Below, in pieces: positions 643 to 41,680 of a stretch of 55,087 bases of DNA. Numbering within the stretch: the first letter of the stretch is position 1; each line of letters starts with the position of its first letter. Below the pieces are notes generated by a model, which saw only the letters and a list, made by a program, of their open reading frames with translations, did no database searches and was not told where the DNA came from. The DNA comes from Bacteroidota bacterium (lineage in GTDB: Bacteria > Bacteroidota > Bacteroidia > Bacteroidales > UBA4417). The stretch lies in the NCBI GenBank assembly GCA_037128115.1, contig JBAXXB010000002.1, positions 1 to 55,087 of the forward strand, given 5' to 3'. Made by a program: the position numbers and the translations under genes.

Positions 643-1854
643 ATGAAGAAAAAAGTCTGTTTTTACATAATAAGCCTGGTGCTGCTGGTATCAGGGACGG
701 CAAATTCGCAAAGTTTTACCAATTACACCACAGCAAACGGCTTGCCTGACAACAATGTGAACGGAGTAGTTGTTGACAGTAATAATGTAAAATGGTTCGG
801 AACCCAAAGCGGGGTTGCACGGTTCAACGATGTTACATGGCAGGTTTTCACCACTGCCGACGGGCTGGTGGATAATTATATAAACTGCATCGCTGTCGAT
901 AAGAATAACCACATATGGGTTGGAACCGACATAGGTGCCTGCTTTTACAACGGGTTAAACTGGAAAACCTACACAACGGCTGACGGGCTGATCAACAACA
1001 CTATCAGTTATATAACGGCAGGTGCCGACGGCAATGTATGGATAGGAACCGGATCGGGCATGTCGAAATTTGACGGCACCACCTTTACAAATTATACTAC
1101 TTCCAACGGACTGCCTTCGAACATGGTAAGCTACATAGCCGTGGACGGCAGTAACAATGTCTGGATTGGAACCTGGATTGGCGGATTGGCTAAATTTGAC
1201 GGCACAAGTTTTAGAACCCTTACTACCCTCGATGGTTTGCCCGTCGATAATATCACCTCAATAGCCATCGACAAGGCCGGCAATAAATACGTCGGTACTT
1301 TTTCCGGTGTTGCGGTCCTGGATAGCACAGATACCTTTGTCAGGAATTTCACTTCAGCCAATGGCCTGTTTAACAACTATGTGCAGGACCTCGACCTTGA
1401 CTCACATTCACAGGTATGGGCAGCCATTTACGCCGATTACCTTCAGGAAGGTGGGTTAAGCCGTTATAACCAGGCGACCTGGAGTTCTTTTTCGGTGGGT
1501 GACGGGCTGGTAAATAACCTGGTCAGGCGGCTGACGGTGGATAAAACCGATCATGTTTGGATAGCCACAGGCCAGGGCGTTTCCGACTATTACCCCGGCA
1601 GCTATGGGATCAGCGAAATAGCCATGGAAGCAGAATCCGTTTACCCCAACCCGGCACATGAACAGCTTGTGATCAGGCATAAAAACAACGACTCAGTCCT
1701 GTCCTTATACGATGCTACGGGAAAAGAATCGCTGACTTCAATCCTAACAGGAGAAAACACTTGCATTGATATACAGTCATTGCAACCAGGAATTTATTTG
1801 CTCCGGATCAGGGATGCCAACAAGGTGTACAGTTCTAAAATAATAATACAGTGA
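643..1854 (+). CDS. Two-component-regulator-propeller-like (Reg_prop repeat) secreted protein with T9SS C-terminal domain
   Basis: Signal peptide MKKKVCFYIISLVLLVSGTANSQ at the internal ATG 643 (the listed start at 613 is TTG). About 7 repeats of the pattern T..(D/N)GL..N.(V/I)..I..D..(N/G)..W(I/V)GT. The C-terminus VYPNPAHEQLVIRH...GIYLLRI is a T9SS CTD. Confidence 0.8.
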   Translation: MKKKVCFYIISLVLLVSGTANSQSFTNYTTANGLPDNNVNGVVVDSNNVKWFGTQSGVARFNDVTWQVFTTADGLVDNYINCIAVDKNNHIWVGTDIGACFYNGLNWKTYTTADGLINNTISYITAGADGNVWIGTGSGMSKFDGTTFTNYTTSNGLPSNMVSYIAVDGSNNVWIGTWIGGLAKFDGTSFRTLTTLDGLPVDNITSIAIDKAGNKYVGTFSGVAVLDSTDTFVRNFTSANGLFNNYVQDLDLDSHSQVWAAIYADYLQEGGLSRYNQATWSSFSVGDGLVNNLVRRLTVDKTDHVWIATGQGVSDYYPGSYGISEIAMEAESVYPNPAHEQLVIRHKNNDSVLSLYDATGKESLTSILTGENTCIDIQSLQPGIYLLRIRDANKVYSSKIIIQ

Positions 1855-4121
1855 TCCGTACGCTGATTTTAACTGCCTTCTTCCTCCTGGCATGCGGCAA
1901 TTGTTTGCAGGCTCAGGATACTTTTTACGAAACTGACCAATTACAGGAAATCCGGATCACTTTTAGTGAAGCTAACTGGAGCCATGTGCTTGACAGTCTG
2001 TATCTTAATTTTGGTGACAATGGCCGTTTAGTCGGCGATGTGGTCATCAACGGGCAAGTGATCAAAAAAGCCGGTGTACGGTATAAAGGATTCAGTTCGT
2101 GGAACGAAGGCGTGATTAAAAACCCTTTTAATGTCGAACTGGACTACACCGTTAAAAATCAGAACTACCAGGGGCATACCAAGCTGAAGCTCAGCAATGT
2201 AATCGAAGATCCTTCCTTTGTGCGTGAAGTGCTATCGTATGAAATCGCCCGGAAATACATGCCGGCCTCAAGAGCCAATTTTGCAAAGCTGTATATAAAT
2301 GATAGCCTGATTGGCCTGTATACCAGTGTGGAGGCCGTTGATAAAACTTTCGTTCTGGCTCATTACGGATCTTCGGCCAACAGTTTCTTTAAGGGTGAAC
2401 CCGACACGCTTGTATACCCCTTCGGGCAGAATGCAAACCTCGCATACACACACGGCAGCGACAGTTCCGCGTATAAACCTTTTTACAACATGGAGTCGAA
2501 GGTGGGCTGGAACGACCTGCTGAATTTTATACGGGTGCTGAACAACTCCACCGACAGCATTCCTTATGTCCTGAATACGGATCGGGCTCTTTGGATGCAT
2601 GCCTTCAATTATACCTTGTTGAATCTCGACAGTTATATCGGCTATTCGCAAAACTACTATATCTATAAGGATAACCTCGGTCGTTTTAATCCGATTGTCT
2701 GGGACCTGAATATGTCATTCGGCAGTTTCAGGGAGTCGGACGCTTCATACAACTTCCTGGGGATAGCCATACCAAAGATCAAGGTACTGGATCCAATGGA
2801 ATTGCTCAATTTCTGCATATCTCCACGGCCTCTTATAACCAGGCTGATCGAAAAGGATACCTGGAGGAAGATGTATCTCGCTCACATGAGAACGATACTG
2901 AATGAGAATTTCGCAAATAACGCTTTTTATACCAGGGCCAGGGAATTGCAGAACGAAATCGATGCCAGTGTAAAGGAAGATACGCACAAGTTCTATTCCT
3001 ATTCCGATTTTCTCGCAAATGCGGATACTACGGTTGGAGGAAGCGGGACAATGATCCTGTATCCTGGTCTCAGTGACCTGATGAGGGACAGGACTAATTA
3101 CCTTGCGACCTATCCCGGGTTTAGCGGTGAGCCGACCATTTCGCGTATCAACCACGAGCCGGATGTGCCTGTTATGGGAAGCCCCTTGTGGATCACAGCA
3201 TCAGTAATTTCTGCCAAAAATGTTACACTTGCTTACCGTTTTGGCCCGGATAAGGCTTTCACAAAAATATCCATGCTCGACGACGGAAATTCGCACGACG
3301 GCGCAGGGAACGACGGCATCTATGGAGTTGCTATTGAGGCATCGGACACGCTAATTCAGTATTATATCTATGCCGAAAACGACAGCGCAGGCAGTTTTTC
3401 TCCCGAAAGAGCCGAATATGAATTTTACACGGTGCAACCCCAGGTCAAGGCAGGGGAACTGGTGATCAACGAAATCCTCACTACTGGCGACAACCTGCTT
3501 GCCGGCGAAGATGCTGTAAACAACGACTGGATTGAAGTGCTCAATACCAGCAGCGGAACCATACAACTTACGGGCTTTTCACTGCTGCAGCAGCCCGATA
3601 GTATCTACTGGGAATTCCCGAACATTTCGGTACCGGCCGGCAAATTTGTTATGGTTTGGGCTGATGGATCAGGTGCACCACATGCGGGCTTTACGCTCCC
3701 TCAATCCGGGGGAATGCTTACATTGCGCAATTCGGGTGGAATGGCTATCGATTCGGTGGAATATGGATGGCAGGTGAATGGGAAATCCACGGGAAGGTAT
3801 CCGAATGGAACCGGTTCATTCAAATTTATGGAACCAAGTCCGGGTAAAAATAATACTTTTGGGTCTACTCCTGAATCTGGGTTCCGGTTATACCCCAACC
3901 CGGCCAGGGAACAGATCACTGTTGAGTTCAGCAACCGGGATTTACCTTACGGAATCGAAATGTATAACTCAAAAGGACAATGTGTATACAGTCGTCAATT
4001 CCAGGCCGAATCGTTCACCTCGGTTGCAGTCCCGCTTGATGTGTCAGTATTACCGGGATTGTACCTTGTAAAGCTCAGTACTGATGGCAGTGTATTTACA
4101 AAGAAGCTAATTGTTTATTAA
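1851..4121 (+). CDS. CotH kinase family protein with lamin-tail-like domain and T9SS C-terminal domain
   Basis: GTG start overlaps the previous stop (GTGA). Signal peptide MIRTLILTAFFLLACGNCLQAQ. CotH-like core (KLKLSNVIEDPSFVREVLSYEIARKY..., NYYIYKDNLGRFNPIVWDLNMSFG). LTD-like segment (ELVINEILTTGDN..NDWIEVLNTSSGTIQLTGFSL..GGMLTLRNSGGMAIDSVEYG). CTD FRLYPNPAREQITVEF..GLYLVKL. Confidence 0.8.
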   Translation: MIRTLILTAFFLLACGNCLQAQDTFYETDQLQEIRITFSEANWSHVLDSLYLNFGDNGRLVGDVVINGQVIKKAGVRYKGFSSWNEGVIKNPFNVELDYTVKNQNYQGHTKLKLSNVIEDPSFVREVLSYEIARKYMPASRANFAKLYINDSLIGLYTSVEAVDKTFVLAHYGSSANSFFKGEPDTLVYPFGQNANLAYTHGSDSSAYKPFYNMESKVGWNDLLNFIRVLNNSTDSIPYVLNTDRALWMHAFNYTLLNLDSYIGYSQNYYIYKDNLGRFNPIVWDLNMSFGSFRESDASYNFLGIAIPKIKVLDPMELLNFCISPRPLITRLIEKDTWRKMYLAHMRTILNENFANNAFYTRARELQNEIDASVKEDTHKFYSYSDFLANADTTVGGSGTMILYPGLSDLMRDRTNYLATYPGFSGEPTISRINHEPDVPVMGSPLWITASVISAKNVTLAYRFGPDKAFTKISMLDDGNSHDGAGNDGIYGVAIEASDTLIQYYIYAENDSAGSFSPERAEYEFYTVQPQVKAGELVINEILTTGDNLLAGEDAVNNDWIEVLNTSSGTIQLTGFSLLQQPDSIYWEFPNISVPAGKFVMVWADGSGAPHAGFTLPQSGGMLTLRNSGGMAIDSVEYGWQVNGKSTGRYPNGTGSFKFMEPSPGKNNTFGSTPESGFRLYPNPAREQITVEFSNRDLPYGIEMYNSKGQCVYSRQFQAESFTSVAVPLDVSVLPGLYLVKLSTDGSVFTKKLIVY

Positions 4122-4144
4122 TCCAGAAATACAAAGTGAAATAC

Positions 4145-4558
4145 ATGAACCTTTTAATCAAAAAGTACCTGTTGACCGGAATACCAGCACTATTCCTGGC
4201 AATCACCGTCCTTTCGTGCAGCAAGGAATCCGGAACCGGCGGGAATTCCACTATCTACGGTAAAGTTTACGTGAAAGATTACAATGCTGCCTTCACTGTT
4301 CTTGAAGATGAATATTACGGGCAGGATGAGGAAGTATACCTGATCTATGGCGATGACCGTTCGTACAGTGAACATATTAACACTACCTATAACGGTAGTT
4401 TCGAATTCAAGTACCTGAGGCCGGGCACCTACCACCTCTATTGCTATTCGAAAGATTCCACCTTGTTGACTAAAGCCATGGTACCCATTGTCAGGGATGT
4501 TACCATCGATAAAAAGAAACAGGAAACGGAAGTTCCTGAAATTGTTATTTTTAAATAA
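4145..4558 (+). CDS. Small lipoprotein with carboxypeptidase-regulatory-like beta-sandwich pattern
   Basis: Lipobox-like LAITVLSCSKE. The pattern IYGKVYVKDYN....GSFEFKYLRPGTYHLY is typical of CarboxypepD_reg-like domains. ATG at 4145 is preferred over GTG at 4136. Confidence 0.6.
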   Translation: MNLLIKKYLLTGIPALFLAITVLSCSKESGTGGNSTIYGKVYVKDYNAAFTVLEDEYYGQDEEVYLIYGDDRSYSEHINTTYNGSFEFKYLRPGTYHLYCYSKDSTLLTKAMVPIVRDVTIDKKKQETEVPEIVIFK

Positions 4559-4564
4559 AATGCG

Positions 4565-5131
4565 ATGAAAACCACTCTTGGCACACTTATACTGTTGCTT
4601 TTATGCAACCTGGCTTATTGCCAGTCGAATAAGGAGATTAAACTTAACAAGATCAAATCTATCACTACCTTCCAGAACGATAAGGATGAGAGCCCTTCGT
4701 CGGCATATAAAGATGCATACGAAGCCTACGATAAGAATGGCAATACCACCCTGAAGATCAGGTACAAAAAGGATGGATCGGTTGAGAAAAAGGAAACAGC
4801 CCGCTTTGATAAAAACCAGAATAAGGTCGAGGAATTTGAATACGATGGGAAAAACGAAGTTGTCACGCATAAGGTATTCGTTTACAACGCTTTTCAAAAG
4901 AAAACAGAAGAACGGGAATACTCGCCTGCCGGGGAACTCAGTAAGCAAACCGTATTTACTTATACCCCGGCCGGGGAAAAGAACACGGAAACCGTTTCGG
5001 ATGCCAAAGGAAATATCGTGAAGCTGGTGGAATACAAATACAATCCGCGAAACCTGAAAACGGAGCGTACCAGCACGAACAAGGCGAAACAGGTAGAATC
5101 CATCAAAAAGTGGGCTTACGAATATTATTGA
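4565..5131 (+). CDS. Secreted hypothetical protein with short K/E/N-rich repeats
   Basis: Signal peptide MKTTLGTLILLLLCNLAYCQ. Loose repeats are present (YDKNGN.., FDKNQNKVEEFEYDGKNEV, DAKGNIVKLVEYKYN). No family was recognised. Confidence 0.55.
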   Translation: MKTTLGTLILLLLCNLAYCQSNKEIKLNKIKSITTFQNDKDESPSSAYKDAYEAYDKNGNTTLKIRYKKDGSVEKKETARFDKNQNKVEEFEYDGKNEVVTHKVFVYNAFQKKTEEREYSPAGELSKQTVFTYTPAGEKNTETVSDAKGNIVKLVEYKYNPRNLKTERTSTNKAKQVESIKKWAYEYY

Positions 5132-5138
5132 CAGGAAA

Positions 5139-5903
5139 ATGCCTGATACGACCGGAATTCCCTATACACTGCATACATTTGAGCCTATCAGCCTCAAAGA
5201 AATGGACGCGGTTAGACTACTCGACAGGGTTGATGTCAAGTATATGTTCCACCGCGACCTTTTGCAGGATATATTGCAGCAATCAGCAAGGGATTACAGG
5301 GTGCTGACCATTGCAGGATCGGGTTTCAGCCGTTACGAAACCCGGTATTTCGACACGCCGGACCTGGAAATGTACCTGCAGCATCACAATGGGAAACTCA
5401 ACAGGCATAAGGTGCGTTTCCGCGACTATGTGGATTCGGGCATACGCTTTTTCGAAGTAAAACTGAAAACAAATAAGGGCCGTACTATCAAGGACAGGGT
5501 GAAACAGAATAGCCCGGCCTACAGGATTGAAGGCGATTCAGAACTTCTGCTGAAAGAAAAAACCGGGTATGATCCATCCATGCTTGTTCAGTCGATACAG
5601 GTGAATTACAAGCGTATTACCCTGGTGCGCAAAGATATGACTGAACGACTGACCCTGGATTTTGATCTGAGTTTCCTGTTCAAAAACACCAATAAGCATT
5701 TCCCTAACCTTGTAATAGCCGAAGTTAAACAGGATTTAGCCGCCAGGTCGCCTTTCATTGCTACCATGCAGTCCAGGTATATTCCGGCCCATTCTCTCAG
5801 TAAGTACTGCCTCGGGATTGCGGTAATGAATCCCGGTATCAAAACCAATAATTTTAAATCTAAACTCCTCCATATTCAAAAAATGTGTCATGACAACCTA
5901 TAG
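5139..5903 (+). CDS. VTC domain (polyphosphate polymerase-like, CYTH-like tunnel fold) protein
   Basis: Motifs LLDRVDVKYMF, YETRYFDTPDLEMY, LNRHKVRFRDY and FFEVKLKTNKGRTIKDR fit bacterial VTC-domain proteins. No signal peptide. Confidence 0.75.
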   Translation: MPDTTGIPYTLHTFEPISLKEMDAVRLLDRVDVKYMFHRDLLQDILQQSARDYRVLTIAGSGFSRYETRYFDTPDLEMYLQHHNGKLNRHKVRFRDYVDSGIRFFEVKLKTNKGRTIKDRVKQNSPAYRIEGDSELLLKEKTGYDPSMLVQSIQVNYKRITLVRKDMTERLTLDFDLSFLFKNTNKHFPNLVIAEVKQDLAARSPFIATMQSRYIPAHSLSKYCLGIAVMNPGIKTNNFKSKLLHIQKMCHDNL

Positions 5904-6615
5904 CAAACTCCTTGTTTTCCTGCTTTTTCTCATGCTCGCCACCCCGGTTGCCACTTTTGCCATCCAGATTGCCGATAACGAAATTACAGCCTTTGACGAA
6001 ACGGAAACACCACAGACAAAATCCGAAAAGAAAAAAGAAAAGGATAAAGATATAGTAAGCATCACACCCAGGTTTTTTATTACCCTGGGGATAGATGTTG
6101 CCATGGTTCTACTTATCATTTTCCTGATTTATTATCCCAATTACCGGAAAATGGACACGATCTTTACCTTTATCGTGTTCAATATCATGATTTTCCTGCT
6201 GACTTTTGTACTGAACAAGGTGAAAATATCCATGGGAGCCGCATTCGGCCTTTTTGCGGTTTTTTCGATGCTGAGGTACCGGACCGAGGGAATAGGGATG
6301 AAGGACATGACTTACCTGTTTATCTTCATTGCGATAGGGCTGATAGGTGGCATTCAGCTCGATTATACCGTGCTGGCAGTAATATGCGCTATTGTATTTA
6401 TACTCACGTTTATACTCGATTCTAATTTTATCCTAAAGAGAGAATTATGCCAGAGTATTGAGTTCGAAAAAATCGAGATGATAAAACCTGAATTGAACGA
6501 TCAGCTTCTTGAAGAACTAAGGGCACGAACGGGTCTGAAAATTCATCGTATTGCCATAAAAAAACTTGACTATCTCAGGGACATGGCTTCTATCAGGATT
6601 TATTACTATGAATAA
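5890..6615 (+). CDS. DUF4956 family integral membrane protein
   Basis: Overlaps the VTC gene by 14 nt. Several hydrophobic helices and the characteristic GLFAVFSMLRYRTEGIGMKDMTYLFIFIAIGLIGG block. N-terminal signal-like helix followed by a KSEKKKEKDKD linker. Confidence 0.75.
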   Translation: MTTYSKLLVFLLFLMLATPVATFAIQIADNEITAFDETETPQTKSEKKKEKDKDIVSITPRFFITLGIDVAMVLLIIFLIYYPNYRKMDTIFTFIVFNIMIFLLTFVLNKVKISMGAAFGLFAVFSMLRYRTEGIGMKDMTYLFIFIAIGLIGGIQLDYTVLAVICAIVFILTFILDSNFILKRELCQSIEFEKIEMIKPELNDQLLEELRARTGLKIHRIAIKKLDYLRDMASIRIYYYE

Positions 6616-7282
6616 ACTCGCGAAATTCAGGGTCTGTGTTCTGTTAATACTTCTTTTTATAGGGGTGCGTGGCTTATGCCAGGTGAATGATGCCGGGTCG
6701 TGGCTCTCGGTAAATGTGCAGAAAAAACTCAGCCAGGCTGCATCCCTGACTTTTTCACAGGAAGTCCGTCTCATGGAAAACTTTTCGGAAGCCGCCACCG
6801 TGTTCAGTGATTTCGGAATCGGATACCGCCTGGATAAACATTTTAAACTTGCCGCCAATTACCGGCTGGTGAAGAACCGCAGGCTTGATGACAGCTATGA
6901 GACGAGGAACCGCTTCTATGCTGACCTGAGCTACCGCCGCAAATTTGACCCCATAGAACTAATTGTCAGAGAACGTTTCCAGTCGGAATTTGCCGGGCAT
7001 AACACAGGTATACGGATTAACCCCGAACTGTATTCCAGGACCAAAGCAACACTGAAGTTAGACCTTGACAGGAAGTTAGTGCCTTATGCATATACCGAAG
7101 TATTTCAGCCCCTTAACAATCCTGAAGCCCGGTTTACTGACAAAATACGGTATTGTGCCGGCCTTGAATTCCAGTTTACACCCAGGCACATGATCGATTT
7201 CAATTACATGATTCAAAACAAATTCAATACGCCCTGGGAAAATGACTTCGTGTTTGGGTTCGGGTATTATCTCACACTCTGA
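6608..7282 (+). CDS. Predicted outer-membrane beta-barrel protein (DUF2490-like)
   Basis: The internal ATG at 6608 gives signal peptide MNKLAKFRVCVLLILLFIGVRGLCQ and overlaps the DUF4956 stop (ATGAATAA). Alternating hydrophobic/aromatic strands run to the C-terminus (FVFGFGYYLTL). The family name is from memory of similar Bacteroidota proteins. Confidence 0.55.
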   Translation: MNKLAKFRVCVLLILLFIGVRGLCQVNDAGSWLSVNVQKKLSQAASLTFSQEVRLMENFSEAATVFSDFGIGYRLDKHFKLAANYRLVKNRRLDDSYETRNRFYADLSYRRKFDPIELIVRERFQSEFAGHNTGIRINPELYSRTKATLKLDLDRKLVPYAYTEVFQPLNNPEARFTDKIRYCAGLEFQFTPRHMIDFNYMIQNKFNTPWENDFVFGFGYYLTL

Positions 7283-7508: not shown

Positions 7509-7940
7509 TTTTATCATCACCACCCTTTTGGTTACGAAGAATTTCTCACTACCACCCTGAAAGCCGGGAAGCTTATAGAGAGGGAAGGATATAGAAATAC
7601 AAGCTTCGAGACCAATGAACACTTCCTGTTTATTAAAAGCGAATATAAAAACAGCAGGATCAATTTTACGGACATTATGTATATAGAAGGTATGAAAGAT
7701 TATGTTAAAATCTTTCTCCGCAATGAATCCAGCCCGGTGCTTTCAATCCATTCGCTGAAATCACCTGAGACCAAACTGCCGGCTTCGCAGTTTAGGCTTG
7801 TATACCGGCCCTATATAGTTAATCTCCAGCGGATTGAAACTATTGAACGGTTCAGAATTGTATTCGGGAATGTATATATCCCGGTAAGTGACCAGTTTAA
7901 AGATGTATTTCAGAAATTCCCGGATGAAAATTTCTTATAG
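7509..7940 (+). pseudogene. LytTR-family response regulator remnant (receiver domain missing)
   Basis: The frame is open from 7509 without a start codon: ..PFGYEEFLTTTLKAGKLIERE..FLFIKSEYKNSRINFTDIMYIEGMKDYVKIFL...FRLVYRPYIVNLQRIETIE. This is the receiver-domain end plus a LytTR DNA-binding domain. Only 226 nt lie between it and the previous gene, too little for a receiver domain. Confidence 0.6.
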
Positions 7941-12331: not shown

Positions 12332-15300
12332 ATGAAAAAATCTACTTTCCTGGCCGTATTCGTTATGGCTTTCATTTTTTTCGGCTTTCAGCAGCTTGGG
12401 AGGACTCAGACCCTTCTGCTGAATGAGAATTTCGATTATACGGCAGCCACGCTGTTGACTGCAAATGGTTGGGCAGCCCACAGCGGCGCGGGTACCAATG
12501 CTATAACAGTAACAGCCCCATTACCCGTTACCTATTCCGGGTACTTATCTTCCGGTGTAGGGAACGAAGTAACAGTGGTTGCAAGTGGAGAAGATGATAA
12601 TAAAACATTCACTTCCCAAACCACAGGGAGTGTCTATGCATCATGTCTGGTTAATATCACGACAGCTTCCTTGACTGGTGATTATTTTTTTCACTTTGGC
12701 CAAACTATAATTGGTTCAACATTCAGAGGGCGTGTATTCGTTAAAAAAGATGCATCCAACAACCTGGCATTTGGAATTGCCCAATCCACAACAGTGCCTA
12801 ATTACACAGCGTTTACTTACGCTTTGAATACTACTTATCTCTTAGTACTGAAACTTGATATTGTCAGTGGAACGGCTAATGATGTTGCTTCCATCTACAT
12901 AAATCCAACGCTTAATGCCGTCGAACCATCATCCGGATGGATAGCAAATACCGATGCCGCAGGTACCGATTTGACCGATGTTGGGTCTATAGCTCTCCGT
13001 CAAGGTACAGCAGGTAATACAACAACACTCAGACTCGATGGAATAAGGGTAGCCACAACCTGGGCTGATATTGTAGGATCGGCCTCATCAGCTCCAACCT
13101 GGACGGCAGGCTGGCCAAAAGCAGAAAACGCAGTTCCAGCTGGTTTTACCGCCAAAGTAAATATCAGCGTACCCGGTACATCCTATTTTGTAGTGCTTCC
13201 TTCGGGCGCCACGGCTCCTACTTCGGCACAGGTTAAAGCCGGGCAGAATGCCGCAGGCACTTCCCTTGCAGCCAACCTAAAAGGCACTATTGCCTGTGCA
13301 GCAGGCAGTACGGAATATACATCAGCCGTTACCGGGCTCAGCGGTGCAACTACCTATAATGTATACTTTGTTGCCCAGGATGTTAGTGCCAACCTACAAG
13401 CTGCACCGGTTATGGTTTCCGTTACCACAACCGCAAGCGGCATAGCCCCTGTAATTACAACACCCACTGCAACAAGTATCACTAATACCACAGCCCTGCT
13501 GGGTGGCAATATAACCTCCGACGGAGGAAGCGCACTCTCCGAGAGAGGCACCGTATGGAAATTATCGGCAGGCGTGGCTATAACGGATAACAAACTGGCC
13601 GAAGGCGGAACCGCAACCGGTATATTTACCCAGAGCCGCACGGGTTTACCGGTCAAAACAAAGATCTATTACGCAGCCTATGCCACCAACACGATTGGCA
13701 CTACCCTTTCGACCGAAGCTAACTTCTATACCCTGGCTAACGAACCCACTACCCATGTTACGGGTTTTGCTGCCGCACCGGTGAGCACCACAGCCATTAA
13801 CCTTAGCTGGACAGCAGCTTCCACAGGAGCCGATGGTTACCTTATCTTACAGAAGACGGGTGCCGTTGCACCGACCGGAACCCCGGCCGACGCCACGGGA
13901 TATATTGTTGGAGCTGTGGTTGGCGATGCCACCGTTGCTGCCGTTGTTACCTCGGGAGCTACGCTGCTGCAGGCCATCACAGGTCTTACAGGCGCAACCC
14001 AGTATTCATTCACCATAGTACCTTATGCATGGGACGGAACCAATGCCACTACCTATAACTACAGGACCACGGCAACCATCCCATCGGCCTCGGCTACCAC
14101 CAACACCCCTCCTACCAGCCTCTATACCTGGCAGGGTATCGATGGCGCCGCCTGGAATGTAGCTTCCAACTGGAACCCTACGCGTACCACCCCTTCGACT
14201 ATAGATGTACTGCAGTTTAACGACGGTACCACCAAAACGGTAACGGCGGTTCCTACCGAAACCATAGGACAGCTTATTTTTGCAAACAATACCATTGTTA
14301 ACCTCCAGAGTGCCGCAGCGGTAACTCTGACTATTGGTGGTTTCAGCGGCACCGACCTGGTAATTCCTGCCGGATGCGCACTGAACCTTAACGCCATCAA
14401 CGTAATCGCCATTAACCTGGCTACCGGGGCAACGGGAAGCATCAGTGGCAATGTGGCCTTCTCGTCTACCGCTGCAACGGCACACCGTCTCACGGCAGCG
14501 GATGCTGGTGGAATCACCTTCAACAGCGGTGCAACCTTTACTGCAGGGACCTTTTTCTCGGGTAATGCATTCGGTGCTACCAATGCCAACTCTGTGGTTT
14601 TTGCTGCAGGTTCAACGTATATCTGCCAGGCAGGTAGCAATCCTTTTGGCCTGGGGCAACCTGCCAGCGTGGTTGTTTTCCAGACAGGCAGTCTCTTTAA
14701 AATCATTGCTAACCTGACTCCTTCCTTATCCGGAAGAACCTATGCCAATATGGAAGTCGATTTCGTGGGCGCATCCCTTACCGCAACCGGCGGGGCTGCC
14801 ACTTCAGTCGACAACCTCACCATTACTAACGGGACCATGAACTTCAACATGACCGCCACACCGGGTCATGCCATAAAGGGAAATATAACTGTTGCTGCAG
14901 GCGGAATACTTAATTTTAACCCGCTTACTGCCGGTACCATTAACCTGGGCGGCACCTCCGCTCAAACCATCAGCAATGCGGGAACACTGACATTCAGCGC
15001 CCTGAGTACCATCAACGTAAACAATGCCGCAGGCATAGTGCTTAGCAGCCCGGTAACGATGACGAACCTTTCCCTGACCACCGGAAATATCACAACAGGA
15101 GCCAACACCCTTACCGTAAACACTTCCTTAACGGGCGGTTCGGCCACATCCTTTGTGAACGGTAAACTGGCACGCTTATACAGTGTAGCCGGCACCGCTG
15201 CCTTCCCTATTGGAAAAGGCGGAAACTATCGCCCGCTTACATTAAACTATAGTGCCATCGATGCTCCAAGCACGGTTACTGCCGAGCAGACCGAATCAGC

Positions 15301-18300
15301 ACTTACCGGGACACTGCCTGCCAACACCACGCTCTTCACCGACCGTTTCTGGACACTCAGCCAAACAGGGGCAACCGCATTCACTTACGATATCACCCTC
15401 GACGGCACCGGCTTTACTCCTACAGCCACACCTGTATTACTGAAAAAGGATGTGGCTACCATTACATCCTATAGCACTACTGGCGTTGCACCGGCATATA
15501 CCACCACCGGCCTGACCAACTTCAGCGATTTCGCTTTAGGAAATTACACACCTCCTCCAGTGATCACTTCCGCTCCTGCCACACTCACAGGATTTACTTA
15601 CATCCTGGGAGCAGGTCCTTCGGCGGAACAGACTTTCACCGTTTCGGCCGTGAACCTCACCGGCAACCTCGTTATCACGGGTACTGCCAATTACCAGATC
15701 TCGACCACCTCGGGAGCAGGTTTTACATCGCCAATCACCCTCAGCCCGACTTTAGGCACTGTAGCGAATACTACCATTTATGTAAGGTTAAAAGCTGGCC
15801 TAGCTGCAGGCGCTTACAACGGGGAAGTGATAAATATTACTTCGACCGGGGCAACTACCAAAACGGTTACCTGCAGCGGTAACGTTCTCAATCCTGTTTT
15901 GACTCTCGGCTCCCTTTCCGGTTTCGGCAATGTATGTATCAATACCACTTCAGGACCTTTAACTTTTACAATCAGCGGTTCCGACCTTACCACTGCCAAC
16001 GTAACAGTAGCTGCTCTTGCAGGATTTACTTACTCAACCACAGCGGGCGGAACCTATACCGCTTCACTGAGCCTGCCTCAGCCCGGCGGTGTGTATTCGG
16101 CAACCATCTACGTTAAGTTTTCCCCTACCCTGGTACAATCGTATAACGGCAATATCGCTGTAGGTGGCGGCGGAGCTCCTTCGGTGAACTGCGCAGCCAC
16201 AGGAAGCGGCATCAATACACCTCCTGCGGTTACAACAACCAGCCCTGCCACTTTAGTTACCGGCACCACAGCGAGCTGTAGCGGAAATGTAACCGATGGC
16301 GGCTGTGCAACCATTACTGCACGCGGTATCTGTTACGGAACCACGGTGAACCCTGATATTGCAGGCAGCAAGACTACCGAACCCGGCACTACCGGGGTGT
16401 TCACAAGCGCACTTACCGGACTCATTCCTGTCACCACCTATCATTACAGGGCATATGCAACCAGTAGCATCGCTACCACGTATGGTGCCGACTTTACATT
16501 CACAACACTGGCTGTAGCGCCAACGGTAATTACAAATGCCGCCACTTTAATCAGTGGAAACGGTGCTACTTTAAACGGCTCGGTGAATGCCAATAATTCA
16601 AGCACTGCCGTTACTTTCGAATATGGTACCACCATTGCTTACGGAACCATAGTAACCGCTACACCTAGCCCCGTGACCGGAACTTCAGCTACGGGTGTCT
16701 CCTATATACTCACCGGGTTAATCCCGAATACTACCTATCATTTCAGGGCAGTAGGCGTTAACGTGGCAGGCACAACCAATGGCCTCGACCTTAGCTTTAC
16801 CACTTCGGCCATTTTGCCGACCGTTGTAACCACTGCCGCAACCGGGATTACTTCGGTAGCAGCTAACCTGAACGGAACCGTAAATGCTAACAATGCCAGC
16901 ACAGTAGCTACATTCGAATATGGTACTACGGTAGCCTACGGTTCAGTTGCAACCGCAGTGCCGAGCCCTGTAACCGGAACATCCGCTACTTCTGTATCTT
17001 ATGCATTGAGCGGGTTAATTCCAAATACCACCTATCATTTCAGGGTTAAAGGTGTAAATATAGCTGGTACTGCCAATGGCAACGACCTCACTTTTACCAC
17101 AACAGCCCTCGCCCCTACAGCCGTGACCATCGCAGCAACAGCCGTAGGCCCTACAGCCGCTACACTGAACGGATCGGTAAATGCCAATAACCAAACCGCA
17201 ACCGTTACTTTCCAATATGGCCCGACTGTTGCCTATGGCACCACTGTAAATGCAGTGCCTAACACGGTTTCAGGAATGACAACCACCCCGGTTTCAGCAG
17301 CCATTACCGGCCTGGTGATCAATACCACCTATCACTTTAGGGTAGTTGCCGTAAACGGAACCGGGACCACCAACGGTAACGACCTTACTTTTGTTACCAA
17401 CTGCAACCCGGCTGACCCGGCAGGCGCAATCACAGGCCCTGTTAATGCATGCCAGTCCAGTAACGGTATTGTATACAGTGTCGGCCTTATCAACCAGGCA
17501 ACCAGCTATGTATGGACTGTTCCTGCAGGCGCTACCATAGTGAGCGGGAGCGGGACCAATTCTATAGTGGTTAATTTCGGACCAACGGCTGCTTCGGGTA
17601 ATGTTACCGTGTACGGTGCAAGTTCCTGCGGCAACGGGGCTCCATCCTCACTGGCTATTACGGTTTATCCTATTCCTGTCCCGGTAATCACCGGATCAGC
17701 AACAGCATGTATCACTGCAACTACCAATTTTTATTCCACACTTGCCGGCATGGTCGGTTATACCTGGACGGTTTCGGCAGGAGGTACCATTACAGCAGGC
17801 GCAGGAACCAATGCTATCACTGTTACCTGGACTACTTTAGGTGCAAAAACCGTAACCCTGAATTACTCTAATGCAGGTGGCTGCACAGCAGTGGCGCCAG
17901 CATCCTTCAACGTAACTGTGAATGCCATTCCTTCGCCGACGCTCAGCGGCCCTGCTGAACTTTGTGCAGGCGCATCCGGAGTAGTTTATACCACCGATGC
18001 CGGGTTTGCAAATTATGTATGGACTATTTCATACGGGGGAACCATTACTTCCGGTCTGAATACCAACGTAATAACCGTGAACTGGGCTACAGCCGGTTCC
18101 AGGACCATATCAGTAAACTACGCCAATGCATTGGGATGCAGCGCCACAACGCCTACCTCTCATGCCGTTACCGTACTTTCGGTTCCTGTTCCTATGATCA
18201 CTGGCGACAATGAAGTGTGCGAAGGCGCCACAGGTGTTACGTACAGTACACAAGCCAATAACGAAAATTACGTATGGGTGATTTCTGCAGGTGGTACCGT

Positions 18301-19186
18301 TACCGCCGGGGCCGGAACACGCGAAATCACGGTTAGCTGGACCGGTAGCGGCAACCAGACGGTTAGTGCTAACTATACCAATTCACTGGGTTGTGCCTCC
18401 ATTGCACCTACAGTTTTTAACGTTCTGGTTGATCCTAAACCTGCTGCTGCAGGCATAATTACAGGAACCACGCCGGTATGTGCAGGAACTTCGGGAGTTG
18501 CCTACTCGGTGAGCCCTGTTGCCAATGCAACCGCTTATGTATGGACACTTCCTGCCGGGGCAAGTATAGCCGCCGGAACCGGGACCAACGCCATCACTGT
18601 TAATTTTGCAAATACAGCAGCCTCCGGCATCATCAAGGTAAATGCTACCAACGATTGCGGAAGCGGGGCTTCTTCACCTAACTATACCCTGGTGGTAAAT
18701 CCAATCCCTGCCACACCGGTAATCACCCAGCATCTTGACACGCTTACCAGCAGTGCCAATACAGGAAACCAGTGGTATCTAAACGGAACCGCCATCGCAG
18801 GCGCAACCGGCAAGAAACATATCGCTGTTTATACCGGTCATTATACGGTTGTTGTGACAGTGAACGGTTGCAGCTCAGCAGTATCGAATTCCATCCTGGT
18901 GCTGCCGGTTTCTGTTACCGACCTTAGCATCAGCAGGACGCTCGATATTTACCCGAACCCAAGCAACGGCCAGTTCACGGTTAAGGTTAATACGCTGAAG
19001 ACAGAGGAATATTCCATTGAAGTATACAACAACCTGGGAGCCATTATCTGGAAACAGGAAAATGTAAGCATCAACGGAACCTATACCGCCCATGTCGACC
19101 TGAATGGTTCGCCATCGGGTGTTTATATGGTTGCCTTACGGAACAAAGCCAACAGTATTGTGAAGAAGGTTGTGATTATGAACTAA
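12332..19186 (+). CDS. Giant (2284 aa) multi-domain T9SS-sorted surface protein / putative adhesin
   Basis: Signal peptide MKKSTFLAVFVMAFIFFGFQQLGRTQ. Thr/Ala/Gly-rich Ig/FN3-like modules, including three tandem units of about 98 aa ending ..NTTYHFR.. and six Cys-containing units of about 80 aa. Terminal NQWYLNG module and CTD LDIYPNPSNGQFTVKV...GVYMVAL..KKVVIMN. Confidence 0.9.
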   Translation: MKKSTFLAVFVMAFIFFGFQQLGRTQTLLLNENFDYTAATLLTANGWAAHSGAGTNAITVTAPLPVTYSGYLSSGVGNEVTVVASGEDDNKTFTSQTTGSVYASCLVNITTASLTGDYFFHFGQTIIGSTFRGRVFVKKDASNNLAFGIAQSTTVPNYTAFTYALNTTYLLVLKLDIVSGTANDVASIYINPTLNAVEPSSGWIANTDAAGTDLTDVGSIALRQGTAGNTTTLRLDGIRVATTWADIVGSASSAPTWTAGWPKAENAVPAGFTAKVNISVPGTSYFVVLPSGATAPTSAQVKAGQNAAGTSLAANLKGTIACAAGSTEYTSAVTGLSGATTYNVYFVAQDVSANLQAAPVMVSVTTTASGIAPVITTPTATSITNTTALLGGNITSDGGSALSERGTVWKLSAGVAITDNKLAEGGTATGIFTQSRTGLPVKTKIYYAAYATNTIGTTLSTEANFYTLANEPTTHVTGFAAAPVSTTAINLSWTAASTGADGYLILQKTGAVAPTGTPADATGYIVGAVVGDATVAAVVTSGATLLQAITGLTGATQYSFTIVPYAWDGTNATTYNYRTTATIPSASATTNTPPTSLYTWQGIDGAAWNVASNWNPTRTTPSTIDVLQFNDGTTKTVTAVPTETIGQLIFANNTIVNLQSAAAVTLTIGGFSGTDLVIPAGCALNLNAINVIAINLATGATGSISGNVAFSSTAATAHRLTAADAGGITFNSGATFTAGTFFSGNAFGATNANSVVFAAGSTYICQAGSNPFGLGQPASVVVFQTGSLFKIIANLTPSLSGRTYANMEVDFVGASLTATGGAATSVDNLTITNGTMNFNMTATPGHAIKGNITVAAGGILNFNPLTAGTINLGGTSAQTISNAGTLTFSALSTINVNNAAGIVLSSPVTMTNLSLTTGNITTGANTLTVNTSLTGGSATSFVNGKLARLYSVAGTAAFPIGKGGNYRPLTLNYSAIDAPSTVTAEQTESALTGTLPANTTLFTDRFWTLSQTGATAFTYDITLDGTGFTPTATPVLLKKDVATITSYSTTGVAPAYTTTGLTNFSDFALGNYTPPPVITSAPATLTGFTYILGAGPSAEQTFTVSAVNLTGNLVITGTANYQISTTSGAGFTSPITLSPTLGTVANTTIYVRLKAGLAAGAYNGEVINITSTGATTKTVTCSGNVLNPVLTLGSLSGFGNVCINTTSGPLTFTISGSDLTTANVTVAALAGFTYSTTAGGTYTASLSLPQPGGVYSATIYVKFSPTLVQSYNGNIAVGGGGAPSVNCAATGSGINTPPAVTTTSPATLVTGTTASCSGNVTDGGCATITARGICYGTTVNPDIAGSKTTEPGTTGVFTSALTGLIPVTTYHYRAYATSSIATTYGADFTFTTLAVAPTVITNAATLISGNGATLNGSVNANNSSTAVTFEYGTTIAYGTIVTATPSPVTGTSATGVSYILTGLIPNTTYHFRAVGVNVAGTTNGLDLSFTTSAILPTVVTTAATGITSVAANLNGTVNANNASTVATFEYGTTVAYGSVATAVPSPVTGTSATSVSYALSGLIPNTTYHFRVKGVNIAGTANGNDLTFTTTALAPTAVTIAATAVGPTAATLNGSVNANNQTATVTFQYGPTVAYGTTVNAVPNTVSGMTTTPVSAAITGLVINTTYHFRVVAVNGTGTTNGNDLTFVTNCNPADPAGAITGPVNACQSSNGIVYSVGLINQATSYVWTVPAGATIVSGSGTNSIVVNFGPTAASGNVTVYGASSCGNGAPSSLAITVYPIPVPVITGSATACITATTNFYSTLAGMVGYTWTVSAGGTITAGAGTNAITVTWTTLGAKTVTLNYSNAGGCTAVAPASFNVTVNAIPSPTLSGPAELCAGASGVVYTTDAGFANYVWTISYGGTITSGLNTNVITVNWATAGSRTISVNYANALGCSATTPTSHAVTVLSVPVPMITGDNEVCEGATGVTYSTQANNENYVWVISAGGTVTAGAGTREITVSWTGSGNQTVSANYTNSLGCASIAPTVFNVLVDPKPAAAGIITGTTPVCAGTSGVAYSVSPVANATAYVWTLPAGASIAAGTGTNAITVNFANTAASGIIKVNATNDCGSGASSPNYTLVVNPIPATPVITQHLDTLTSSANTGNQWYLNGTAIAGATGKKHIAVYTGHYTVVVTVNGCSSAVSNSILVLPVSVTDLSISRTLDIYPNPSNGQFTVKVNTLKTEEYSIEVYNNLGAIIWKQENVSINGTYTAHVDLNGSPSGVYMVALRNKANSIVKKVVIMN

Positions 19187-19236: not shown

Positions 19237-19491
19237 TTCCCGTTTTCACCCTGTTTACTGGTTACTGAAATTTAGCACCCGGGCAATTCGTACCCTGCGA
19301 TAAAATCTTACTCAGCACCCGTACTTTTTCATACTTTTACCTTGTTAAGTATAGGTACTTACCGGCTATTACCCGGTCGTACCCCGCAAGAAAACAATTT
19401 GGACCGAACCTATGTTCTAGCTCGCCCTCAAAAGGGATTTTTTTTGAGCCGGCGGAACAAAATACATAGTAATCCACCACACCACTTTGAA

Positions 19492-35402: not shown

Positions 35403-35421
35403 ACGTTTTCAGTTTTATGTT

Positions 35422-38328: not shown

Positions 38329-38361
38329 AAGAATAGGTGTTTGGTTAATTGAAACTGGTGT

Positions 38362-39636: not shown

Positions 39637-39658
39637 AGGTTTTAACGCTAGTGATGAG

Positions 39659-39940
39659 TTATTCTTTAACAAACTTAGTGAAATAATGACGATTTGATTC
39701 AGTGCCAGTAGTTTTAAGCAGGTAAAACCCTGGTTTTATGTGTGAAATATCAAGTTGCGTTAATTCATTGTGAGAATAACCGTTAAGAAGGCTGCGCCCG
39801 CTCATTTCACAGATTTCCCATTTGTATGAAGAGGTTTTCATTTTAATATTCAGCCTGTCTTTAGCCGGAATGGGTGAAATTTCCGTCCTTAAGCCTTTCG
39901 CTTCAACCGCCAGACCGGCTGTAGAAACTATGCCCATCAC
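39659..39940 (-). pseudogene. T9SS C-terminal sorting domain, severed from the upstream S51 peptidase ORF by one in-frame TAA
   Basis: Same frame as 39941-41623. The reading is ..IDYTTP-TAA-VMGIVSTAGLAVEAKGLRTEISPIPAKDRLNIKM....LDISHIKPGFYLLK...TKFVKE, a complete CTD with no independent signal peptide. Confidence 0.7.
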
Positions 39941-41623: not shown

Positions 41624-41680
41624 ATGCCCCTGAATAAAATATGGGAAAAGCGAAATTAATAAAAACAGTGAATAAAAAAA

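Follow-up and report, generated by a model that had tools for sequence, protein, structure and literature searches.

A CotH-associated VTC-DUF4956 gene cluster in a Bacteroidales genome and its possible role in polyphosphate handling at the cell envelope

Gene content and order of the cluster

We analysed a 55,087 nucleotide stretch of a Bacteroidota genome (contig JBAXXB010000002.1), hereafter called the window. Near its left end lie six ORFs, all on the + strand, for which family assignments and three overlapping junctions were verified. They encode a CotH-family protein (1851-4121, 756 aa), a small lipoprotein that we call p140 (4136-4558, 140 aa), a small exported protein that we call p188 (4565-5131, 188 aa), a VTC protein (5139-5903, 254 aa), a DUF4956 protein (5890-6615, 241 aa) and a DUF2490 protein (6566/6608-7282, 224 aa from the ATG at 6608). 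Read from the DNA, the cotH start overlaps the stop of the preceding gene by GTGA (1851-1854), the VTC and DUF4956 genes share 14 nt (5890-5903) and the DUF4956 and DUF2490 genes share the 8 nt ATGAATAA (6608-6615). The other three junctions are gaps of 14, 6 and 7 nt. The original prediction of a same-strand run of six genes with three overlaps is thus borne out, and its CotH, lamin-tail, T9SS, VTC, DUF4956 and DUF2490 calls were all correct (Pfam E 1.3e-48 to 5.6e-11).

The first proposal placed the start of the unit at 1851, which is too far downstream. The gene overlapping cotH (613-1854, + strand, true start likely the ATG at 643) encodes a protein with two-component regulator propeller (Reg_prop) repeats that also carries a signal peptide and a sorting domain for type IX secretion (T9SS) (Pfam Reg_prop 1.3e-23, Por_Secre_tail 4e-14). 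It is syntenic in the related locus L001, where the protein at the same position (L001:5421-6626) is 52% identical, and a Reg_prop gene is found immediately 5' of CotH in L001, L007, L019, L029, L069, L072, L077 and L082. Further upstream, at 1-540 on the + strand, is the C-terminal part of an arylsulfotransferase (ASST)-like beta-propeller protein that bears a T9SS sorting domain (Por_Secre_tail E 2.5e-9), the rest of the gene being cut off by the window edge. This part is 42% identical to the C-terminal end of L001:3501-5405, a protein with the Pfam domain Arylsulfotrans. Of 136 same-strand neighbour ORFs that were surveyed, 12 belong to the ASST-like family and lie upstream of the cluster. 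Because these ASST-like and Reg_prop genes are syntenic, the cluster is bigger than first described and begins at or beyond the left edge of the window. T9SS cargo genes are plentiful across the whole window.

Downstream, on the + strand, lies a truncated remnant of a LytTR response regulator (7512-7940, Pfam LytTR 1.8e-9). By tblastn it is 46% identical to the response regulator of L001 over residues 97-235 of the latter. It has neither a receiver domain nor a kinase partner, and there is an in-frame stop codon upstream. L001, L092 and about seven other loci have a His_kinase plus Response_reg/LytTR gene pair beside the cluster, and the remnant is probably a relic of such a two-component system. 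The whole gene order was found again in other, independent Bacteroidota genomes, so the arrangement is more than chance.

Properties of the encoded proteins

The VTC-type triphosphate-tunnel (TTM) protein (Pfam E 2.1e-23) has no signal peptide on inspection, as first described, and is predicted to be cytoplasmic. Its AF2 model is of high confidence (pLDDT 91.5), with the Vtc4 structures 3G3R/3G3Q as best structural matches (E 4e-12). K34, R93, R95, K108 and Y157 align with K200, R264, R266, K281 and Y359 of yeast Vtc4, and R159, E195, S221 and K222 align with R361, E426, S457 and K458. According to published mutagenesis, all nine Vtc4 residues are needed for polyphosphate (polyP) synthesis in yeast. 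Among 26 homologues eight of the nine are invariant; at the position of Y157, 23 homologues have Tyr and three have Phe. Every triphosphate and Mn ligand of Vtc4 is kept in the window protein. K458 marks the active yeast subunit Vtc4, whereas the inactive Vtc2/3 have Ile/Leu at this position; the window protein has Lys (K222). A check of the tunnel residues thus finds all of them retained, the K458 equivalent included, and from residues and fold we infer that the protein is a putative polyphosphate polymerase.

The DUF4956 protein (Pfam E 1.3e-48) is a polytopic inner-membrane protein, in agreement with the original prediction. It has an N-terminal signal/anchor helix, a disordered Lys/Glu-rich linker, five TM helices and a C-terminal beta-alpha-beta-beta domain. 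In the AF2 model, of merely moderate confidence (pLDDT 73), the helices span residues 60-85, 88-111, 115-133, 137-154 and 159-177, and the strands lie within 185-240. Conservation peaks in the TM3-loop-TM4 block with the invariant R129 and R131, and we infer that this loop is cytoplasmic. DUF4956 had also been proposed to form, with VTC, a split analogue of the yeast VTC complex. No Foldseek match to the Vtc1/Vtc4 membrane channel was found at E<=1e-3, and the DUF4956 HMM did not match the yeast VTC membrane domain among PDB sequences. As neither its sequence nor its structure shows a detectable resemblance to that domain, DUF4956 would be at most a functional analogue. The first interpretation is partly supported: its family calls and gene adjacency stand, and its split analogue can be one of function alone.

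The DUF2490 protein (Pfam E 1.2e-26) is a putative outer-membrane beta-barrel (TCDB 1.B.81) with a signal peptide, a C-terminal GxGYxxx[FL] motif, a pI of 9.4 and a sub-threshold OMP_b-brl match. R54, R121, R144, R181 and E164 are invariant. DUF2490 is included in a list of putative porin families (PMC4827864).

The two small proteins had been described as secreted proteins or lipoproteins, and inspection agrees. The acidic p140, a predicted beta-sandwich, carries the lipobox VLSC after a hydrophobic N-terminus; Pfam gave nothing above threshold, with sub-threshold matches to fn3_3 and Y_Y_Y alone. The Lys-rich p188 is built of YD/RHS-like beta-hairpin repeats, with weak RHS_repeat matches in 17 of 28 family members and MORN_2 matches in 11. 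After its signal peptide come an invariant Q20 and the basic N-terminus 'QSKKEVKK.KIKS'. The pI of mature p188 is 9.1 (orthologue median 9.06).

The CotH-family protein has a kinase fold and is predicted to be secreted, with a signal peptide followed by CotH (Pfam E 1.8e-44, residues 76-385), a lamin tail domain (LTD, E 3e-12, residues 533-639) and the C-terminal T9SS sorting domain (Por_Secre_tail E 5.6e-11, residues 680-755, also matched by TIGR04183). Compared directly with B. cereus CotH (5JD9), the protein matches weakly. The kinase catalytic residues are retained: in the alignment D260 falls on the catalytic Asp (B. subtilis D228), N268 on the Asn and D285 on the metal-binding Asp (B. 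subtilis D251). They are kept in most, not all, aligned homologues from the related loci; divergent members, e.g. L063:14783-17122 and that of L042, lack at least one of them.

Linkage of the cluster genes across phyla

In 80 of 81 close loci the gene immediately 3' of VTC is DUF4956, and the two reading frames often overlap, so they are near-obligate neighbours as predicted. Two distant DUF4956 genes lack an adjoining VTC gene. Outside Bacteroidota the pair is found in archaea (Methanoperedens), Deinococcus and Alphaproteobacteria. The core of the cluster is VTC followed by DUF4956, with DUF2490, p188 and p140 as Bacteroidota additions.

Of 58 Bacteroidota loci, 49 have DUF2490, and in 44 of those it lies directly 3' of DUF4956; in L091 a YaiO-type barrel takes its place. 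In B. thetaiotaomicron, BT3498-99 are annotated as DUF4956 and DUF2490. Methanoperedens, as archaea, have no outer membrane. A profile search found no DUF2490 homologue in the two Methanoperedens loci (L004, L025), none was called in L004, and none is annotated near VTC-DUF4956 in the Deinococcus or alphaproteobacterial plasmid loci. The proposed outer-membrane barrel is thus conserved in diderm Bacteroidota loci and was not found in the archaeal ones. A p140 homologue is found in 38 of 56 Bacteroidota loci, and p188 immediately precedes VTC in 56 of 79 loci, so both small proteins are conserved core parts of the Bacteroidota cluster. In five rearranged loci p140 is directly 5' of DUF2490 rather than of p188, which suggests that p140 is probably a partner of the barrel, whereas p188 keeps its place beside VTC.

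Among 39 loci with full flanks, 17 (about 44%) have a CotH gene no more than 10 kb away and the other 22 have none. It is enriched together with p188 (16/27 p188-containing loci vs 1/12 others, Fisher p = 0.004). Loci without CotH carry other clients such as Cthe_2159 and beta-propellers. With this occupancy CotH is a client rather than a core part, a frequent but optional partner, and the window holds the CotH variant of the cluster. Apparent DUF4956::DUF2490 fusions and one apparent DUF4956::CotH fusion retain an internal signal peptide or lipobox, so the DUF2490 and CotH partners sit outside the inner membrane.

The CotH-VTC-DUF4956 triad was found again in Deinococcus, Firmicutes and Bifidobacteria, and has already been described in the literature beside Gram-positive pel operons, whereas no pel genes were found at the window cluster. 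In S. intermedius, deletion of the DUF4956 or CotH gene reduces Pel, a cell-surface polysaccharide, and Pel-dependent aggregation. The original prediction missed this earlier description, as it did the upstream extension and the place of the small proteins in the conserved core.

A possible envelope-spanning polyphosphate system

We tentatively read the cluster as an envelope-spanning polyphosphate system in which synthesis is coupled to passage through the envelope and surface enzymes are clients, a reading to which we give somewhat less than an even chance. The soluble tunnel enzyme would convert ATP to polyP at the cytoplasmic face of the inner membrane. DUF4956, from its near-obligate adjacency, would anchor it and probably conduct the growing chain over this membrane. 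Going by conservation, export signals and charge, in Bacteroidota the Lys-rich p188 may handle the polymer in the periplasm, and p140 and the Arg-rich DUF2490 barrel may deliver it to the outer membrane or carry it across. Variable secreted clients (CotH, arylsulfotransferase-like and other beta-propellers, the Cthe_2159 beta-helix) would act on or with the surface polyanion. CotH might take phosphoryl groups from polyP, modify a polyP-bound substrate or merely be co-regulated.

A possible, though rather doubtful, alternative is that the genes form a phosphate-storage module. PolyP would then stay in the cytoplasm, as the S. intermedius authors proposed because other VTC subunits are absent, DUF4956 would be an MgtC-like and ACT-like anchor or sensor tuning VTC to phosphate or energy status, DUF2490 would be an uptake porin for anions or phosphate, and the secreted neighbours would scavenge or be co-regulated. 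Phosphate-acquisition genes (PiT, phytase-like esterase; HAD acid phosphatase, phnDCEE) adjoin the pair in Deinococcus and Alphaproteobacteria, a setting that fits acquisition and storage no less than export, and an Arg-lined barrel suits uptake as much as export. Earlier authors assigned the DUF4956 C-terminus to the ACT-type regulatory domains and likened the whole protein to MgtC, i.e. a regulator rather than a channel, and we see a weak resemblance of this C-terminal domain to ACT or ferredoxin-like regulatory modules. However, MgtC was not matched at E<=0.01 in the Pfam search of the window proteins, and storage leaves unexplained the near-obligate, translationally coupled polytopic partner of a soluble polymerase, the exported p188 fixed directly 5' of VTC and the linkage to secreted CotH in four phyla. 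We consider it improbable that the tunnel enzyme instead hydrolyses tripolyphosphate, polyP or a nucleotide triphosphate, or makes a small signalling molecule, beside an unrelated membrane effector. The TTM superfamily is catalytically diverse, many bacterial CYTH/TTM proteins act in such ways, and ygiF, CYTH 'adenylate cyclases' and thiamine triphosphatase are among the structural matches; yet Vtc4/VTC complexes outscore every CYTH enzyme (E 4e-12 vs 5e-8), and the Vtc4-specific residues, including K458, Y359 and S457, are conserved.

The place of CotH can be read in two further ways. Its export signals and retained catalytic Asp/Asn/Asp, the linkage to VTC-DUF4956 in at least four phyla (Bacteroidota, Deinococcota, Firmicutes, Actinobacteria), the DUF4956::CotH fusion and the three to four tandem CotH paralogues beside a single VTC-DUF4956 pair in L040, L060 and L091 are consistent with the last step of the original prediction, in which surface kinases, lacking an extracellular ATP pool, receive their phosphoryl groups from exported polyP. 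This is speculation drawn solely from linkage, which by itself cannot separate donor, substrate and scaffold roles. The characterised CotH proteins of B. subtilis and B. cereus use ATP as donor, we know of no CotH that uses polyP, and more than half of the related loci have other clients instead, so we regard a donor role as unlikely. Conversely, CotH and the upstream T9SS genes might adjoin the VTC cluster by local Bacteroidales synteny alone, as the 22 loci without CotH and the many T9SS cargo genes of the window would allow. This is very improbable: the linkage recurs in distant phyla with varied gene orders and CotH architectures, GTGA and short-gap junctions run along the whole gene string, and the S. 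intermedius deletions argue against separate roles of CotH and DUF4956. CotH genes being rare per genome, its occupancy of the 20-kb neighbourhood also appears far above expectation.

Returning to the envelope-spanning system, a cluster that combines an intact yeast-type enzyme with envelope partners suggests, but does not prove, that polyP is made and passed into or through the envelope.

Layout and extent of the cluster

The original prediction described a closely packed run of six genes starting at position 1851, and every element of it was confirmed by the ORF listing and by Pfam and NCBIfam scans. The genes lie on the + strand and encode a CotH protein (1851-4121), two small exported proteins of 140 and 188 amino acids (p140, 4136-4558; p188, 4565-5131), a VTC-domain protein (5139-5903), a DUF4956 protein (5890-6615) and a DUF2490 protein (6608-7282). 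The three overlaps it named can be read from the DNA, with GTGA at 1851, 14 nt at 5890-5903 and ATGAATAA at 6608-6615, and the remaining three junctions are gaps of 6 to 14 nt. The gene content of the unit stands; its start at 1851 does not, as the string extends upstream through two further genes. The gene at 613-1854, which encodes a Reg_prop propeller with a type IX secretion system (T9SS) domain, has its 3' end inside the cotH start codon, and its product is 52% identical to that of the gene at the same position in a related locus of a Bacteroidales MAG (L001). Positions 1-540 hold the C-terminal end of an arylsulfotransferase-like (ASST-like) T9SS protein, for which synteny is kept too. 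Because both upstream genes are syntenic, the window carries the 3' part of an eight-gene string on the + strand, in the order ASST-like, Reg_prop, CotH, p140, p188, VTC, DUF4956 and DUF2490. Scans for sigma-70 promoters and intrinsic terminators gave no enrichment over shuffled sequences, with a tool that does not cover Bacteroidota promoters.

Downstream of the DUF2490 gene, a truncated LytTR response regulator is found at 7512-7940 (+), with 46% identity to residues 97-235 of the regulator of the L001 cluster. This remnant has a stop codon upstream and is found without a receiver domain and without a histidine kinase. Since intact His_kinase and Response_reg/LytTR pairs flank related clusters, the copy in the window may have lost its dedicated regulator.

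Further along the window there is a gene for a 2284-aa T9SS protein (12332-19186, +) with PKD_6 repeats and weak PhoD_N and purple-acid-phosphatase N-terminal matches, followed downstream by a secreted Endonuclease I (19342-20535, +). The same neighbourhood is present at L001:16037-20774, with two Endonuclease_1 genes and a PKD_6 T9SS giant. The pairing could reflect phosphate scavenging from extracellular DNA, or shared synteny only. At 34056-44516, a SusC/SusD pair adjoins two S51 (cyanophycinase/dipeptidase E-like) peptidases, an amidohydrolase and an M28 peptidase, which suggests a locus for the use of peptides or cyanophycin and not of glycans. A starch/maltodextrin set at 47782-54372 (+), consisting of a cyclomaltodextrinase-type GH13, a GH31 and a second GH13, is unrelated to the VTC cluster.

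The VTC protein and its membrane partner

The VTC protein has 254 amino acids and no signal peptide. Its domain assignment (Pfam: PF09359) is supported with an E-value of 2.1e-23 and 83.6 bits against a cut-off of 23, over profile positions 2-234 of 235. VTC is the sole Pfam match in the protein; the SPX N-terminal regulatory domain is absent and no transmembrane (TM) segment was found. An AlphaFold2 model (pLDDT 91.5) shows an eight-stranded beta-tunnel fold which, in a Foldseek search, is closest to Vtc4 (3G3R, 3G3Q, 8I6V and 7YTJ at the top; E about 4e-12, TM about 0.65). Bacterial and plant CYTH triphosphatases rank below Vtc4 and the VTC complexes in the same structural comparison. Profile and single-sequence searches of the VTC family against solved structures gave nothing even at E<=10, and hhalign confined the alignment of the family with Vtc4 to the first 50 residues.

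For the comparison of tunnel residues, the sequence of Vtc4 189-481 was verified against the PDB and then added to the family alignment with MAFFT. The tunnel residues, on which the original prediction depended, are all found in the window protein: K200, R264, R266, K281, Y359, R361, E426, S457 and K458 of Vtc4 correspond to K34, R93, R95, K108, Y157, R159, E195, S221 and K222. Across 26 homologues these nine positions are invariant, except for Y157, which is Tyr or Phe. Cryo-EM has shown that these Vtc4 residues hold triphosphate and Mn2+, mutation of the eight triphosphate ligands lowers the polyphosphate (polyP) content, and K458 is the only one of these positions at which the inactive Vtc2 and Vtc3 deviate, having Ile or Leu there (10.1101/2023.01.27.525886). 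Because all ligands including the K458 equivalent are retained, the window protein is, as judged from its residues, of the 'active' subunit type and a putative polymerase.

The yeast VTC complex (Vtc4/Vtc3/Vtc1; 3G3Q/3G3R, 7YTJ, 8I6V) and the window genes have the catalytic domain family (Pfam VTC) in common, with all triphosphate and Mn ligands kept here and a predicted tunnel fold nearest to Vtc4. In both cases the enzyme has a polytopic membrane protein as its partner, which is what synthesis-coupled translocation would lead one to expect. In contrast to yeast, the tunnel domain is here a free-standing protein without SPX and unfused to a membrane domain, and its setting is a prokaryotic envelope, where it has periplasmic and outer-membrane (OM) partners. 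The known prokaryotic polyphosphate kinases are PPK1 and PPK2, whose net reaction leads from ATP to polyP and whose product is cytoplasmic. VTC would carry out the same net reaction with an unrelated fold. In a 2025 review, VTC still counts as the eukaryotic type of enzyme and PPK as the prokaryotic one, and in the literature we found no study in which a VTC-domain protein from a prokaryote had been assayed.

The DUF4956 assignment and the polytopic character of the protein were likewise confirmed (Pfam E 1.3e-48). The model (pLDDT 73) begins with a signal or anchor helix, after which come a disordered linker rich in Lys and Glu, five TM helices and, at the C-terminus, a beta-alpha-beta-beta domain. 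Conservation is highest in TM3-loop-TM4 (…FSMLRYRTEGI.MKDMTY…), where R129 and R131 are invariant; judged by the topology we assume, this stretch would lie on the cytoplasmic side. It had been proposed that VTC and DUF4956 form a split version of the yeast complex. A Foldseek search with the DUF4956 model gave no match at E<=1e-3 and neither 7YTJ nor 8I6V among the 50 matches listed, and a search of the DUF4956 HMM against PDB sequences found nothing. On these results we rejected homology between DUF4956 and the membrane domain of yeast VTC. There is no detectable similarity to the three-helix Vtc1-type channel domain, from which DUF4956 differs by its five TM helices and small alpha/beta domain; the 'split VTC' is thus at most a functional analogy. 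The C-terminal domain has weak ACT/KH-like similarity in Foldseek. Others have assigned DUF4956 to MgtC plus ACT, with the MgtC assignment made via CDD; our Pfam scan at E<=0.01 gave DUF4956 alone, and there was no PDB match for DUF4956.

Exported proteins and conservation of the linkage

The 756-aa CotH protein carries a CotH domain (Pfam E 1.8e-44, residues 76-385), a lamin-tail domain and a T9SS C-terminal sorting domain, in agreement with the original prediction. The sorting domain is of type A and lies at residues 680-755 (TIGR04183, 4.5e-12; PF18962, 5.6e-11); it matches the solved C-terminal domain 8GLK_D. By inspection, the N-terminus has the signal peptide MIRTLILTAFFLLACGNCLQA|QD. 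In a MAFFT alignment the motifs NLD(260), QN(268)Y and WD(285) pair with NFD, HNY and WDYD of the B. cereus 5JD9 fragment, and the equivalents of the B. subtilis catalytic D228, the Asn and the metal-binding D251 are kept; the transfer of residue numbers from B. cereus to B. subtilis is suggested by the 23-residue spacing. Compared with the spore-coat CotH of Bacillus (B. subtilis; B. cereus 5JD9/5JDA), the domain and catalytic residues are common to both. The window protein is predicted T9SS surface cargo, whereas the Bacillus kinase acts in the mother-cell cytoplasm. Furthermore, the lamin-tail domain is an addition here, CotB/CotG-type substrates are not found nearby and the host is not a spore former.

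The two small exported proteins between CotH and VTC gave sub-threshold matches only in Pfam and PDB searches. p140 is a small acidic lipoprotein. p188 has an invariant Gln after the signal peptide, then a Lys-rich segment, and a variable number of YD/RHS-like hairpin repeats; the orthologues have pI values of about 9. In all 28 of the 28 p188 homologues (alignment A3) the Gln stands right after the predicted signal-peptide cleavage site, and a Gln at this position is also found in CotH (LQA|QD) and DUF2490. N-terminal pyroglutamate on exported proteins is a habit of Bacteroidota, which the Gln pattern of p188 fits.

The DUF2490 protein (Pfam E 1.2e-26) has the signal peptide and the barrel-like pattern ascribed to it. 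Across 29 homologues there is a C-terminal GxGYxxx[FL] and an alternating strand pattern, in line with the putative OM porin family TCDB 1.B.81, under which TCDB lists DUF2490. Sequence matches to OmpG and KdgM are sub-significant. The protein has a pI of 9.4 and its invariant residues are four Arg and one Glu. The charged strand residues of the putative barrel probably face the lumen, which would suit anionic cargo.

Synthase-dependent exopolymer systems combine inner-membrane polymerisation with periplasmic handling proteins, an OM lipoprotein and, for anionic polymers, a basic-lined beta-barrel. Alginate Alg8/44-AlgK-AlgE, PNAG PgaCD-PgaA, cellulose Bcs and Pel follow the same logic as that proposed for the window cluster, by analogy only: no component is homologous, the barrel here is small (about 200 residues), and the polymer would be inorganic polyP and not a polysaccharide. 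No description of the DUF2490/p140/p188 extension was found in the literature.

Scanning the VTC alignment against one genome per GTDB species gave 80 loci, nearly all from Bacteroidota, and their ORFs were searched with profiles made from the window proteins. The linkage is conserved in these other genomes. DUF4956 directly follows VTC in 80 of 81 loci, DUF2490 is present in 49 of 58 and directly after DUF4956 in 44 loci, a p188 homologue lies directly upstream of VTC in 56 of 79, and a p140 homologue is present in 38 of 56. CotH is found within 10 kb in 17 of 39 full-flank loci, counted with two profiles, one trimmed of the T9SS sorting domain and one for a second architecture. The cluster is thus real and conserved, and since p140 and p188 are conserved across the loci, they are core parts of it and not filler. 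In five loci with a changed gene order, p140 has shifted together with DUF2490 and p188 remains at VTC, which suggests an outer-membrane pair (p140 lipoprotein and DUF2490 barrel) and an inner-membrane group (p188, VTC and DUF4956).

The CotH proteins of these loci have two architectures, the second of which, LTD–CHB_HEX_C–Fn3_assoc–CotH, was revealed by Pfam. CotH is enriched in loci with p188 (16/27, versus 1/12 without p188; p = 0.004), and some loci have three or four tandem CotH paralogues. Paludibacter-type loci have a Cthe_2159 beta-helix protein instead and are without p140, p188 and CotH. In one Bacteroidota subclade, a T9SS repeat protein of ~550 aa with no Pfam family is located directly upstream of p188. 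It has about eight 'GGAI..W.D.R.G..DIYAQR' repeats (L039:7852-9504, L041:7842-9494, L079:7847-9505 and nine more loci), is probably a beta-propeller, and CotH is usually missing from that position in the subclade. We rejected it as a divergent CotH or Cthe_2159, the hhalign match being the shared sorting domain only.

Distribution of the VTC–DUF4956 pair and its possible role

At 50% identity, the DUF4956 family falls into about 1,800 clusters. Five distant members were sampled, of which three have VTC adjacent and two do not. At L094:2123-6449, a distant DUF4956 gene stands without a VTC neighbour, and the genes after it encode a phytase-like/'SdiA-regulated' propeller and a TonB-dependent receptor. 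Other partners are therefore possible for DUF4956 as well.

Four unusually long DUF4956 proteins were detected, three of them apparent DUF4956::DUF2490 fusions and one an apparent DUF4956::CotH fusion; none is a VTC fusion. In every one of them a signal peptide or lipobox is still present internally, at the join of the two halves. The apparent DUF4956::DUF2490 proteins (L092:3708-9322 and the long DUF4956 proteins P0266 and P0319; 422-512 aa) have the barrel signal peptide internally and could be real tethered or cleaved proteins, or read-through gene calls. The same protein was found in one ENA and one Logan assembly, from samples that are possibly not independent. The apparent DUF4956::CotH fusion (671 aa, internal lipobox) is part of L091:4036-11919 on a metagenome scaffold of 714 kb, in the order YaiO-type barrel with TPR, VTC, DUF4956::CotH and three tandem CotH genes. 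The YaiO-type barrel, another OM barrel family, takes the place of DUF2490 there. As they may be read-through gene calls, the fusions were set aside as proof of physical interaction; they show tight adjacency and export of the partner.

CotH, a polyP polymerase and DUF4956, in some cases with DUF4832, have been described as accessory genes of Gram-positive pel operons (Whitfield et al., bioRxiv 768473). NELoc-2 of C. perfringens carries genes for VTC, a 'tubulin-like' membrane protein and CotH (PMC2879425). The triad of S. intermedius is SIR_1592-1594; deletion of its DUF4956 or CotH gene leads to less Pel, a cell-surface polysaccharide, and to less Pel-dependent aggregation, and the authors state that the triad does not occur outside pel loci (PMC12345266). 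The scan of the 55-kb window, which covered ORFs of at least 150 aa, found no pel genes, and Pel families are likewise absent from the Pfam-annotated neighbourhoods of four related loci (L001, L002, L091 and L092). Because the window has the triad without pel genes, it contradicts the published restriction to pel loci, as do the related Bacteroidota loci and Deinococcus. The window and the Gram-positive group share the same three adjoining families and a secreted CotH with its catalytic residues kept. Here, by contrast, the host is diderm, CotH has T9SS sorting and lamin-tail domains, and p140, p188, DUF2490 and the upstream ASST-like and Reg_prop genes are added. The cluster is thus a new diderm, T9SS-linked form of a gene group that was noticed earlier but never explained. 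In B. thetaiotaomicron, BT3498-99 (DUF4956, DUF2490) appear as one joint entry in an iron-limitation RNA-seq table, with a fold change of -7.6 that is not significant (reported P 0.175).

Outside Bacteroidota, Candidatus Methanoperedens has the bare VTC–DUF4956 pair. In Deinococcus one instance of the pair has CotH with it and another has an acid phosphatase and phnDCEE as neighbours, and in Alphaproteobacteria it lies beside a phytase-like esterase, in one case with a PiT phosphate transporter too. The best-supported reading of the pair, which we hold tentatively, is polyP synthesis by VTC, coupled via DUF4956 to delivery into the envelope. VTC would make polyP at the inner membrane and DUF4956 would couple the synthesis to delivery; in Bacteroidota, p188, p140 and DUF2490 would carry the route on to the cell surface, and there a varying set of secreted proteins would act on the product or together with it. 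In other phyla, the phosphate-acquisition genes next to the pair fit the main rival as well as they fit export. According to this rival, which we consider somewhat unlikely, the genes form a module for storing phosphate in the cytoplasm, with DUF4956 as regulator or anchor of the enzyme and DUF2490 as importer of phosphate.

The analysis shows the family memberships, the conservation of catalytic residues, the linkage of the genes and the export signals. Synthesis coupled to delivery is plausible as a whole mechanism, within which we infer the polymerase activity, the translocation, the direction of transport and any CotH–polyP chemistry. The suggestion that polyP serves as the phosphoryl donor of CotH appears improbable to us. 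Less probable still is the reading in its full form, with VTC and DUF4956 as a third, hitherto unrecognised prokaryotic polyP route, a polymerase–translocase of bacteria and archaea that places polyP outside the cytoplasmic membrane, extended to a trans-envelope exporter (p188, p140, DUF2490) in Bacteroidota, with a T9SS-exported CotH drawing phosphoryl groups from surface polyP in an ATP-free compartment.

Extracellular or periplasmic polyP has been observed and, to our knowledge, never explained. If the product leaves the cytoplasm, the cluster would provide a genetic handle on this polyP and a hint of how secreted kinase-fold enzymes could work without ATP. It would also account for the triad of CotH, polyP polymerase and DUF4956 at pel loci, with an anionic polymer there as a possible partner of Pel, a cationic polysaccharide. 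Testable organisms are B. thetaiotaomicron, with its DUF4956–DUF2490 genes BT3498-99, and S. intermedius, with its existing mutants. A widespread prokaryotic VTC-type enzyme with its catalytic residues intact and a membrane protein as fixed partner would, if true, alter the way in which the capacity to form polyP is deduced from genomes and metagenomes, affecting gut Bacteroides and wastewater communities.
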